The position numbers were made by a program, and so were the translations under genes. Below are positions 30,634-33,226 of a stretch of DNA of 64,000 nt, piece by piece. Location: assembly GCA_022813865.1 (NCBI GenBank), contig JALDZX010000036.1, positions 62,001-126,000 on the forward strand. The letters run 5' to 3'. This DNA comes from Xylographa opegraphella (Eukaryota). Every line of letters starts with the position of its first letter. The stretch's first letter is position 1. Below the pieces are notes generated by a model. It saw only the letters and a list, made by a program, of their open reading frames with translations. It was not told where the DNA came from and did not search any database.

Positions 30634-31444
30634 ATGTCTTTCTTCCACACATTGAAGAGACGCTATCGCTATGCATTGCTTAACGATGAAAGAGAGTCTG
30701 GTACCCTTCTCAAACTACAGTTCTCTTTCAGTCGAATTTTCTGCATCGACATCAATGCCTCAGCATTCTTTACTGCTTCTACCGCTCTACTGATAGTCTT
30801 CTGTGTTGCCCTTGTGAGCTTCTCCGCAGGAAGGCGAATGTCTACCAAGGCACAACGTCCGAATCTCGAGCGTAAGACCTCCCTGGCGCTCAGAAGTAAT
30901 TTGATAAAACTAAGGCGCTCCTTGCTAGTGAATGTGGTCACGCAGGTTTTCAAGTACAATAGGACATTCGCCGAAGCTCCTTCTGATATATCGGATCGTG
31001 CCTGGAAAGACATCTTCCCGCCTCGAGGCGGCTTCTTCGCGCATCCCGGTATCGCCCCTCACAGATCAACTTTCTCCGTCTTTCATCAGTTGCATTGCCT
31101 GGTAGCATCTACTCTTCTCGGGAGTAACTTATGTGACTGTTGCTGATAGGGCATTGTAGGACGGAATTCGGCAGGGCTATTGGACGTTCTATCAGATGGC
31201 CGCCAAAGGCCAGAAACTGCAAGAGGAAGAGCTACCGATGATGTCCTCGCCACCCCATGTCCGTCATTGCATTGATCTACTGCGTCAGAGTCTTATGTGC
31301 CACGCAGATACAACGGTCGAAGTCAAGGAAAAGGGCTCTGATGGTGTCAAAGGCTTCGGAACTACACATCACTGTCGAGACTGGCAGCAACTTCTACAGT
31401 GGACGTCAAAGGCACAGTTAAGCACCTTGAAGGAAGACCAGTAG
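30634..31444 (+). CDS. DUF3328 / UstYa-like oxidase #1 (about 231 aa)
   Basis: Exons 30634-30871, 30929-31101, 31160-31444. N-terminal TM helix; SVFHQLHCLDGIRQ and HVRHCIDLLRQSLMCHADTTVE (two HxxHC); GFGTTHHCRDW. Confidence 0.92.
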
Positions 31445-31496
31445 ACGGGAAATGAGATACATTGGTCGTACTGACAGCAGAATTATTCATATTTAC

Positions 31497-32430
31497 TCAA
31501 GTGGCATAATTATATAATGGGTTCGCCAACCGTGCAAGTTCATCATGATCCACAACGCGTTCTTTCAAAGACGACATCAGCTGTTCCCAATCAATGCACA
31601 TATGGGGAGAACGCCTGAGGCTCATTACGGGCTTCTGTTTCTCCCTTTCCCATTTGAACCCAACCAAGGACGTGTCACCATGACAGATCGCAGCTTGTCG
31701 AAGATACTCGATACAATGATCTAAACACCGTTCAGAGATTGTACACTATCAATTCAGTGAGGAGCTTTACCCGAATGCTCTTGGTAGTGCACCACTTCTT
31801 CTACAGTCAAATTCGGATGGTAGTGGTCCTTGTAAGTCCACTGCCGCACAAATTTCTATATTGCGGAAGGCAGATTAGCTGTACGGCCGGCTCAATGGCA
31901 CCACGTCATGCAGCCGTGGTCGTGATTGCTTACCAGGCAGTGAAGTTCGTGAAAGGCTCCCAACCAAGATAAATATCCGCCACCCTCTGGCAGTTCTACC
32001 GATGTTTGGTGTGCGATATCCAGCTCGGTCTTGGAGACTCGTATGTTGATATTTTCCAGGATATTTTGCCAGGCCATATCAAGTTGAGGGCTTGGCGGAC
32101 CAGCGAAGATATTATCCTTCAGTTTATCATACAGCTGAGGTCTGCGACTGTATGAGCGACTCAGCAATCCTAAATTATTCGTGGTCAGCAAGGTCAATGC
32201 AGCATCTGCTGGAAATTCTTACCACCGCTTAATTCAGCCTGATTCGTATACGTCCGGATGATAGCAACACTGATGAAACCATACATGATAACAATCAAGG
32301 TGTGAACGAGAAGGCTTTTCCTCCGACTCCATTCTTGACTCGCTGACTTCTTCTCTTGATCAGGGAGATCGAGTAATAGGACCTTCTCCTTCTGATCGAA
32401 CGGGAGGAAAGAGTGGTTTTTCGACGCCAT
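31497..32430 (-). CDS. DUF3328 / UstYa-like oxidase #2 (about 250 aa)
   Basis: Exons 32430-32223, 32169-31934, 31855-31771, 31720-31497. TM helix; FAGPPSPQLDMAW, GGYLSWLGAFHELHCLKFVRQW, HSDHCIEYLRQAAICHGDTSL, HMCIDWE. Confidence 0.92.
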
Positions 32431-32917
32431 GGAGTTTGATTTCTACTTCGCAGAGACTTTTTGAGTAAGACGTCTATAACATTGACGAGCCCTCCTATAG
32501 CCTCTGAGCTCTGAGCTGTCTGCACGAGTATGTTTCGCGCTCGCTGGTCTCTTATCGATGCCGGCCATAACTTGCTTGCAGATCGAAGGATTCTTCTGCC
32601 TGCAGGCTGCAAGCACTGTGACTGCATGCAATGATAAAGCTATGATCTGTGATGACCAACGAAGCGCATAATCAGTGATTCGTCACTCGCACAACCTCGA
32701 TGGTGGAGTGTAAAGTTCGCTGCGGGGATGGATGTCTTGTCTGCATGCCAAAGATATCCTCGCGATCAGCTCGAGGCATCGAAGGGACGTTAAGATAAGT
32801 TGCGAGATCACCAACTACCCCAAGTGCATATCATCCTGCCATCAGCAAATAGCAAACGGGTCTCCTCCCTTCCTGAACATTCTCCGTATCTGGTTCTCCT
32901 CCGGACCTCCCCTCTCA

Positions 32918-33226
32918 ATGCATTACTCTACTTTCGTTCTCGCCGCACTTGCAGCGATCGCAACCGCCATGCCCTTCGAACCAGTACCGCGAAGCCCAAG
33001 CAGTGAGATTCAACAGTGACCCCCGTCTTTCGCGAGCCATGTTGACTCTCTCTCAGTGAAGCCGGCGATGCAATCCAAGGATGTGTTCGACAGTGTGGTT
33101 GCCCGCGGTATAGGCGCGGATGAGGACGTGATGTTCCCGAGCGCCAGCAGGGATGAGGACATCATGTATCCAGATGCATCTCGCGACGGAGACATCACAT
33201 ATCCTGATGCATACGATGACGAATAG
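32918..33226 (+). CDS. Putative fungal RiPP precursor peptide (84 aa, signal peptide plus 3 tandem acidic repeats)
   Basis: Exon 1 32918-33002, intron 33003-33056 (GTGAGA...TTGAC...CAG), exon 2 33057-33226: MHYSTFVLAALAAIATAMPFEPVPRSPSMKPAMQSKDVFDSVVARGIGADEDVMFPSASRDEDIMYPDASRDGDITYPDAYDDE*. Lies next to two DUF3328 genes. Confidence 0.8.
33110..33223 (+). repeat. Degenerate 33-bp coding tandem repeat (3 copies plus a partial 4th)
   Basis: Equivalent Asp codons at 33119, 33152, 33185 and 33218 (33-nt period): GATGAGGACGTGATGTTCCCG / GATGAGGACATCATGTATCCA / GACGGAGACATCACATATCCT. Confidence 0.85.

Follow-up and report, generated by a model that had tools for sequence, protein, structure and literature searches.

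A three-gene locus of the lichen-forming fungus Xylographa opegraphella is a candidate minimal dikaritin-type cassette with conserved synteny

We identified three adjoining genes in a 64-kb stretch of DNA (the window) from Xylographa opegraphella, a lichen-forming member of the fungal class Lecanoromycetes. Two of them, Y1 and Y2, encode paralogous oxidases of the UstYa/DUF3328 family, and the third encodes a small repeat-containing peptide, the candidate precursor of a peptide that is made ribosomally and modified post-translationally (RiPP). Gene models were read by eye from the window sequence and then checked by script. The initial annotation of this DNA had placed the two DUF3328 genes and the small gene with the repeat correctly, and the locus is laid out as follows (nt, nucleotides).

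30634-31444, + strand: Y1, UstYa/DUF3328 oxidase gene 1; PF11807 match, two HxxHC motifs, Y1 clade
31497-32430, - strand: Y2, UstYa/DUF3328 oxidase gene 2 (deposited as MMC26_005168); PF11807 match, two HxxHC motifs, Y2 clade
32431-32917: Y2/precursor intergenic region, 487 nt between divergent start codons, with coordinates from the gene models
32918-33226, + strand: precursor peptide gene, 84 amino acids (deposited from Met18 as MMC26_005169); repeat and syntenic homologues
33119-33151, + strand: repeat unit 1, DEDVMFPSASR, Phe replacing Tyr; from repeat self-alignment and unit comparison
33152-33184, + strand: repeat unit 2, DEDIMYPDASR; same basis
33185-33223, + strand: repeat unit 3 plus acidic tail, DGDITYPDAYDDE; same basis

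The stop codons of Y1 and Y2 converge and lie 52 nt apart. The region between the start codons of Y2 and the precursor gene (32431-32917) is presumed to be a promoter shared by the two.

Y2 comprises four exons (32430-32223, 32169-31934, 31855-31771 and 31720-31497) encoding 250 amino acids, and the model is identical, residue for residue, to the deposited MMC26_005168 (P0002, 250 amino acids). Y1 comprises three (30634-30871, 30929-31101 and 31160-31444), encoding 231 amino acids if the 57-nt first intron at 30872-30928 is spliced. This intron, in frame and free of stop codons, is probable and may be retained, homologues being ambiguous on the point; the second, at 31102-31159, is a phase-0 intron. 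Pfam matches for both genes were made on exon or open reading frame (ORF) pieces rather than on spliced proteins, with a PF11807 cut-off of 25 bits. Both genes match this profile, as the initial annotation had proposed checking. For Y1, ORF 30598-31143 scores 25.0 bits, exactly at the cut-off (profile positions 11-137), and 31160-31441 scores 70.8 bits (profile positions 141-219); for Y2, the exons score 45.6 and 47.9 bits, and PF11807 is also precomputed for P0002. The spliced products carry HQLHC at residue 132 and HVRHC at 170 (Y1), and HELHC at 143 and HSDHC at 175 (Y2), in agreement with the earlier description of two intact DUF3328 genes with both HxxHC motifs in each.

Each first exon encodes one strongly hydrophobic N-terminal window of 19 residues, best placed at residues 45-63 in Y1 (Kyte-Doolittle mean 2.35) and at residues 40-58 in Y2 (mean 2.45). 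The DUF3328 protein CctR is described as a dimer held by a disulfide link and dependent on copper and dioxygen; it has a single transmembrane helix and a helical domain in the lumen, and its HxxHC pair binds two copper ions (PMC12435403). The asperipin cyclase AprY is said there to behave like CctR, being dimeric and dependent on copper and O2 (PMC12435403). By analogy with CctR, we predict a single N-terminal transmembrane helix and a lumenal C-terminal domain for both Y1 and Y2, and their HxxHC pairs may each form a putative binuclear copper site.

The precursor gene has two exons (32918-33002 and 33057-33226) separated by a 54-nt intron (33003-33056, GTGAGA...CAG), and encodes 84 amino acids, of which exon 2 contributes the three repeat units plus the acidic C-terminus. 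The deposited MMC26_005169 (P0001, 67 amino acids) has the same intron but starts at Met18, and therefore lacks the hydrophobic N-terminus (32918-32968; 12-residue window mean 2.43) that is encoded from the ATG at 32918. We favour this upstream ATG over the deposited start because the homologues described below have signal-peptide-like first exons. The precursor matched no Pfam family.

The three 11-residue units give a best ungapped self-alignment score of 88 at offset 11, which none of 3000 composition-preserving shuffles reached (mean 19.4, s.d. 4.6, maximum 43), and the outcome is unchanged when the comparison is limited to the last 37 residues of the precursor. The small repeat-peptide gene proposed in the initial annotation is upheld, with 84 amino acids and three units. 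The repeat exists at the level of the peptide only, as Tandem Repeats Finder found no DNA-level repeat at the precursor. Units 1 and 2 are identical at 8 of 11 residues but at only 19 of 33 bases, and their Ser-Arg pair is encoded by different codon families, AGC-AGG in one and TCT-CGC in the other. The same peptide in differing codons is the pattern expected from selection on the peptide. A lone Arg stands ahead of units 2 and 3, and unit 3 is the only one with the fuller [IV]xYPDxY form that is common among relatives.

A word-index search with precursor exon 2 matched only the window's own MMC26_005169, and the ESM Atlas gave no usable match. When P0001 was searched exhaustively by HMMER against 1.84 billion representatives, a single convincing homologue apart from itself emerged, in an unrelated record: P0011 (46 amino acids, E 7.9e-5), which combines two R-D-G-D-V-T-[FY]-P-D units with a C-terminal tail. 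A profile search added a weaker second candidate that shares the precursor motif, P0012 (45 amino acids, E 0.096). P0009 and P0010, also matched in the HMMER search of the representatives, are long repetitive proteins, with a RING-finger-like N-terminus in one and a kinase-like C-terminus in the other by eye, and were rejected as repeat or low-complexity look-alikes. Another of the records, P0005, is the relative from X. bjoerkii.

We located related loci through Y2, aligned with six relatives, by scanning metagenome contigs; the scan yielded 44 loci, with flanks of up to 6 kb on both sides. A precursor profile built from P0001, P0011, P0012 and one locus ORF (from locus L019) was run against 13,332 six-frame ORFs of at least 20 amino acids from the window and the 44 loci, at E 0.01 or better. 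Its sole match in the 64-kb window is the precursor. In 31 of the 44 loci, and in 29 of the 33 that have at least 1500 nt upstream, the Y2 orthologue has a precursor-like ORF upstream of it; elsewhere in the loci the profile found no match. Because one sequence is often represented by several records, the 43 loci with a Y2 exon-2 match were clustered at 90% identity into 20 groups. Twelve groups hold a precursor-like ORF. Its strand is opposite to that of Y2 in ten of them, which is also the arrangement of the window, and the same as that of Y2 in two (L016 and L018). Signal-peptide-like hydrophobic first exons were seen by eye directly upstream of precursor-like ORFs in 12 loci.

Y1 belongs to the same arrangement. 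By tblastn with the window exons, 27 of the 33 loci whose downstream flank measures at least 700 nt have a Y1 orthologue convergent with and downstream of Y2. These orthologues lie 102-355 nt beyond the Y2 match and have about 50-63% identity in the last exon; cross-matches between the Y1 and Y2 paralogues are at 30-39% identity. From the window and 17 loci chosen by hand, 35 C-terminal segments went into a maximum-likelihood tree, in which the Y1 clade (17 rows) and the Y2 clade (18 rows) separate with 100/100 support each. A third UstYa paralogue occurs on the far side of the precursor in L019 (3289-3772, - strand) and likewise in L021-L027, and on the tree the copy of the L019 group forms a long branch within the Y1 clade.

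Homologues lying apart from DUF3328 genes had been named in the initial annotation as an outcome that would speak against it. The opposite was found in the loci and groups counted above, and its reading of the locus as a RiPP core, formed by a precursor and two oxidases, is supported by the conserved three-gene synteny. The other genes near the cassette (the rhodopsin-domain ORFs, a methyltransferase, an S28 peptidase, fibrillarin and seven unassigned ORFs) have no tblastn match in the 44 loci at E 1e-4. Given this lack of direct homologues, they are not counted as cassette members, and the conserved unit is the three genes.

At least ten different repeat sequences among the groups share the motif D-x-D-[DE]-x-[IV]-x-Y-P-D. 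We built a unit profile from 15 lineages with equal weights, in which positions -2, 0 and +1 are constrained by the anchoring pattern and the others are free. At the free positions, Asp reaches 0.73 at -7, Asp or Glu 0.97 at -5, and Asp 0.89 at +2; inside the anchoring pattern, Ile or Val reaches 0.91 at -2, and Tyr and Phe share the central position at 0.90 and 0.10. The repeat reported in the initial annotation is real, but the conserved unit is longer than the IMYP/ITYP core named there and consists of an acidic stretch followed by [IV]-x-Y-P-D.

The relatives vary around this unit. The copies number up to ten in one set, where they end ...AIAYPDSYKR, and another set has units ...IVYPDEKLYAEEYKR. 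In many relatives KR follows every unit, which is the classical architecture of Kex2-processed repeats. Short forms without KR, with two or three units, occur in L001, L003/L004, L015 and L016 and in P0011 and P0012, and several of these match the window precursor in having a single Arg ahead of the last unit and an acidic tail. A further variant adjoins the Y2 orthologue of L017 (484-1286, - strand), where four small ORFs have units made of an acidic stretch, L-[IV]-V-W-P and G-Y-R, with Trp for Tyr. These ORFs follow a signal-peptide-like exon at 1140-1286.

We propose, with a probability of roughly 70%, that the locus is a minimal dikaritin-type RiPP cassette, in which a secreted precursor and two paralogous, membrane-anchored UstYa oxidases are co-inherited across many fungi. 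As the arrangement is kept in many other fungi, X. opegraphella very probably makes a modified peptide, for which we found no published description. If the three genes are expressed together, the 84-residue precursor would enter the secretory pathway through its N-terminal signal peptide, and Y1 and Y2, hypothetically as a heterodimer, would oxidise the conserved [IV]-x-[YF]-P-D segment in the lumen of the endoplasmic reticulum or Golgi. The acidic D-x-D-[DE] ahead of the core is probably the recognition sequence. Ustiloxin and phomopsin are cyclised by a link from the Tyr side chain to that of Ile (PMC7329392), and the likeliest chemistry here would be macrocyclisation by way of the Tyr side chain, for instance as an aryl-alkyl ether with the beta-carbon of the Ile or Val two residues upstream, which would be the mirror order of their Tyr-x-Ile link. 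In the relatives, release would be by a Kex2 cut at KR. In the window form, cleavage could occur where a lone Arg stands in front of each unit ([SD]-R then D), and the acidic ends would then be trimmed. Since a second Tyr is present in the last unit only, the window precursor may yield one main product.

A bolder version of this proposal is a widespread dikaritin-like family whose [IV]-x-Y-P-D core is cross-linked in mirror order by a co-inherited pair of copper UstYa enzymes, perhaps a heterodimer, and which includes a lichen-containing branch that has lost its dibasic Kex2 sites and sets free just one C-terminal core, behind a lone Arg. As a whole we regard this version as possible but rather doubtful. 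If it is true, the lone-Arg maturation route would be invisible to Kex2-based genome mining.

Several observations weigh against the proposed cassette. Eight of the 20 groups have no precursor-like ORF, five of them having less than 1500 nt upstream. None was seen in L013/L014, with 6000 nt upstream, or in L006, with 1542 nt, and L017 shows only its Trp variant, which was spotted by eye and missed by the profile. The matches of the L019 group (12 loci) are partly by construction, because the L019 ORF is part of the profile. L005, L015 and L016 are without a downstream Y1 despite at least 4 kb past the Y2 match, so the Y1/Y2 pair is not obligatory, and the Y1-like gene of L001 lies elsewhere in the locus and not convergent downstream. 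Within the window precursor, unit 1 has Phe for Tyr, a second Tyr is kept by the last unit alone, and the number of dibasic [KR][KR] (Kex2) sites is zero; on the last two points the earlier reading is corrected. An O-methyltransferase of family PF00891 is absent from the window by Pfam scan (130 stop-to-stop ORFs of at least 104 amino acids, plus 7 exon pieces), and 8 of 11 representative relatives have one. Finally, the kind of cross-link is proposed purely by analogy, and DUF3328 enzymes also act on non-ribosomal peptides, as in the case of CctR (PMC12435403).

Some of these features might instead mean that the cassette family is real but is represented here by a decaying relic, which has lost its Kex2 sites, most of its repeats and the O-methyltransferase and gives no finished product. 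The missing dibasic sites, the mere three units with one in the fuller form, and the contrast with the PF00891 genes of the relatives would all fit such decay. The relic is nevertheless unlikely, given three intact reading frames with canonical splice sites, all four HxxHC motifs, and units in which the peptide is kept while the codons differ. The short form without KR that has an acidic tail and an Arg ahead of the unit is also found in L015, P0011 and P0012, and KR-less short forms occur in L001, L003/L004 and L016 too; a form that recurs in this way looks like a maintained subtype and not like decay.

Alternatively, the small gene could encode an ordinary secreted acidic repeat peptide, of a linear Kex2-processed or pheromone-like type, which is left unmodified by adjoining oxidases that have another substrate. 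Among Kex2-processed repeat proteins (KEPs), 78% are reported to have no DUF3328 neighbour and are probably linear (PMC7329392), and DUF3328 enzymes are able to act on non-ribosomal cyclic peptides (PMC12435403). Against this stand the linkage in 12 of 20 groups, with profile matches nowhere but upstream of Y2, and the conservation of Tyr, Ile/Val and Pro, the residues of known dikaritin cross-links (PMC7329392). Nor is another substrate suggested by the surroundings, as no non-ribosomal peptide synthetase (NRPS) or polyketide synthase (PKS) domains were found among the 130 window ORFs or among 66 ORFs of the related loci. Tyrosinase (PF00264) is likewise not found among the 130 window ORFs, and these results agree with the statement in the initial annotation that the window has no tyrosinase, NRPS or PKS gene. 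We consider an unmodified linear peptide quite improbable.

That the small ORF is no gene at all, but a chance frame with a chance repeat in the Y2 promoter region, is scarcely credible: although it has no Pfam family and the deposited model is apparently ab initio, no shuffle reached its repeat score, P0011 is a homologue and the weaker P0012 has the same motif, and the homologous ORFs that, in 12 groups, stand next to orthologous oxidases and have signal-peptide exons would, very improbably, all have to be artefacts.

The sequence comparisons place the proposed cassette most naturally among the dikaritin/ust-RiPS systems, to which the window would add a variant form without KR in a lichen fungus. 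A stricter older definition of dikaritins requires a tyrosinase and a methyltransferase, and later definitions drop both (PMC12048977). The locus falls outside the older one, with no PF00264 in the window ORFs and a methyltransferase (36421-37386) of another family. It does have repeated cores (three units here, up to 10 in relatives) and adjoining DUF3328 genes with conserved linkage; dibasic Kex2 sites flanking the cores are lacking in the window precursor and present in many relatives. More generally, the frequency of DUF3328 genes is reported to peak beside precursor genes (PMC7329392).

The ustiloxin system (UstA, UstYa, UstYb and UstQ) is similar in that its precursor is secreted and repeats cores that contain Tyr, a pair of paralogous double-HxxHC DUF3328 proteins is encoded by the precursor gene's side, and Tyr and Ile/Val stand with one residue between them (PMC7329392). 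It differs in the order of its core, Y-x-I-G as against [IV]-x-Y-P-D, and in its KR sites, which the window precursor does not have. It also has the tyrosinase UstQ, whereas PF00264 was not found in the window or the 11 representative loci, and many further tailoring genes, none of which is seen in the window. Phomopsin (PhomA, YVIP...) shares the residues Tyr, Val, Ile and Pro, after which comes an acidic one, and has a Tyr-Ile link (PMC7329392), but in the order Y-V-I-P, of which the I-V-Y-P found here is the mirror; its locus has five DUF3328 genes and a tyrosinase (PMC7329392). Asperipin-2a (AprA and AprY) offers a minimal cassette without tyrosinase and a Tyr-rich core cyclised by the DUF3328 enzyme AprY. 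Its core, FYYTGY, stands in KR-delimited repeats. It has one DUF3328 gene (PMC7329392), in contrast to the two conserved paralogues here. CctR, the cyclochlorotine hydroxylase, shares PF11807, the N-terminal transmembrane helix and the HxxHC(x)nHxxHC arrangement, but hydroxylates a non-ribosomal peptide, and NRPS is absent from the window ORFs. The core of victorin is unlike that of the present family. Dikaritin cores include YAIG/YVIG and YVIP (PMC7329392). The earlier remark that the core matches none of YAIG, YVIP and FYYTGY holds, with the order of Ile/Val and Tyr reversed.

Part of the family may already have been catalogued. Umemura KEP type G-6 (#13) is described as Tyr-rich with several Asp, and 46 of its 49 members, from 19 ascomycete genera, have DUF3328 neighbours (PMC7329392). 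This description fits the KR-type relatives, and type G-6 may be the KR-type branch of the present family; the window precursor, having no KR, would fail a Kex2-site criterion. The motif strings of the family were not found in the supplementary tables of PMC7329392, which, as far as they were available, show no sequence column. Six of these strings are absent from 8.1 million PMC papers and 0.36 million preprints, and looser strings gave unrelated papers only, among the matches listed. Pasinato and Singh surveyed 111 genomes of lichen fungi, with the X. opegraphella assembly included in their supplement (PMC12048977). Their survey reports DUF3328 genes everywhere and calls the precursor a mystery (PMC12048977). 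It reports no repeat-bearing precursor in the two Parmeliaceae clans analysed, and Xylographa is unmentioned in its main text (PMC12048977).

Against this background, the locus provides a concrete precursor candidate in a lichen fungus, tied to a family of at least ten repeat sequences with one motif, and supplies a testable substrate-enzyme pair for two UstYa oxidases. The product might represent a new scaffold among cyclic peptides. D-x-D-[DE]-x-[IV]-x-Y-P-D is a clear motif for mining, and the window precursor is an example that pipelines requiring KR would miss. Should the KR-type relatives prove to be KEP type G-6, the family would be one already catalogued, though apparently uncharacterised.

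The related loci encode further enzymes. In the 11 representative loci we found 100 ORFs of at least 130 amino acids, and the 66 put to Pfam exclude ORFs that overlap the oxidases or repeat ORFs, together with several other overlapping frames regarded as shadow ORFs. The O-methyltransferases (PF00891) are in L001, L004, L005, L012, L015, L019, L029 and L038. A fungal rhodopsin domain (PF20684) occurs in four loci (L004, L005, L015 and L016), a recurrence that may be due to chance as the family is large. Cytochromes P450 were found in three of the 11, and tyrosinase in none. In three loci the cassette has next to it a gene for an aromatic amino acid lyase (PF00221, E of at most 1e-128; L016:2307-4229, L018:833-2734 and L029:488-2362), an enzyme for which Tyr might be a substrate.

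In the window itself, the cassette has housekeeping genes on its left, and the neighbours identified by Pfam are as follows.

26985-27564: ribosomal L22/L17e-family protein, left of the cassette, housekeeping
28460-29152: fibrillarin, left of the cassette, housekeeping
33699-34753, + strand: fungal rhodopsin-domain membrane protein, right after the precursor gene (PF20684, E 2.1e-6 on ORF 34241-34753)
36421-37386: methyltransferase of the Methyltransf_23/12 type (PF13489 and others), on the right side, 3.2 kb away
40366-42063, - strand: serine carboxypeptidase S28 (E 2.4e-45), 7 kb from the precursor

The rhodopsin-domain gene next to the precursor is a possible accessory gene of the cassette. 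A second PF20684 copy lies at 61636-62566 (- strand). The S28 peptidase family includes proline-specific peptidases, and Tyr-Pro or Phe-Pro is present in every precursor unit. A role for the S28 peptidase in cutting after Tyr-Pro is unsupported by synteny, however, as it has no homologue in the related loci, and we rejected it.

The window has an assembly gap of 20 N at 26399-26418. Five frames of 721 to 1173 amino acids (1730-5248, 8023-10185, 23998-26337, 43812-45980 and 53464-55986) are without a Pfam family at E 0.001. On the + strand, 14723-17329 encodes two pectate-lyase-like RHGA/epimerase stretches (E 2.5e-104) and is adjoined by an alpha-amylase gene at 18556-20406 (+ strand); both are carbohydrate-active and unrelated to the cassette.

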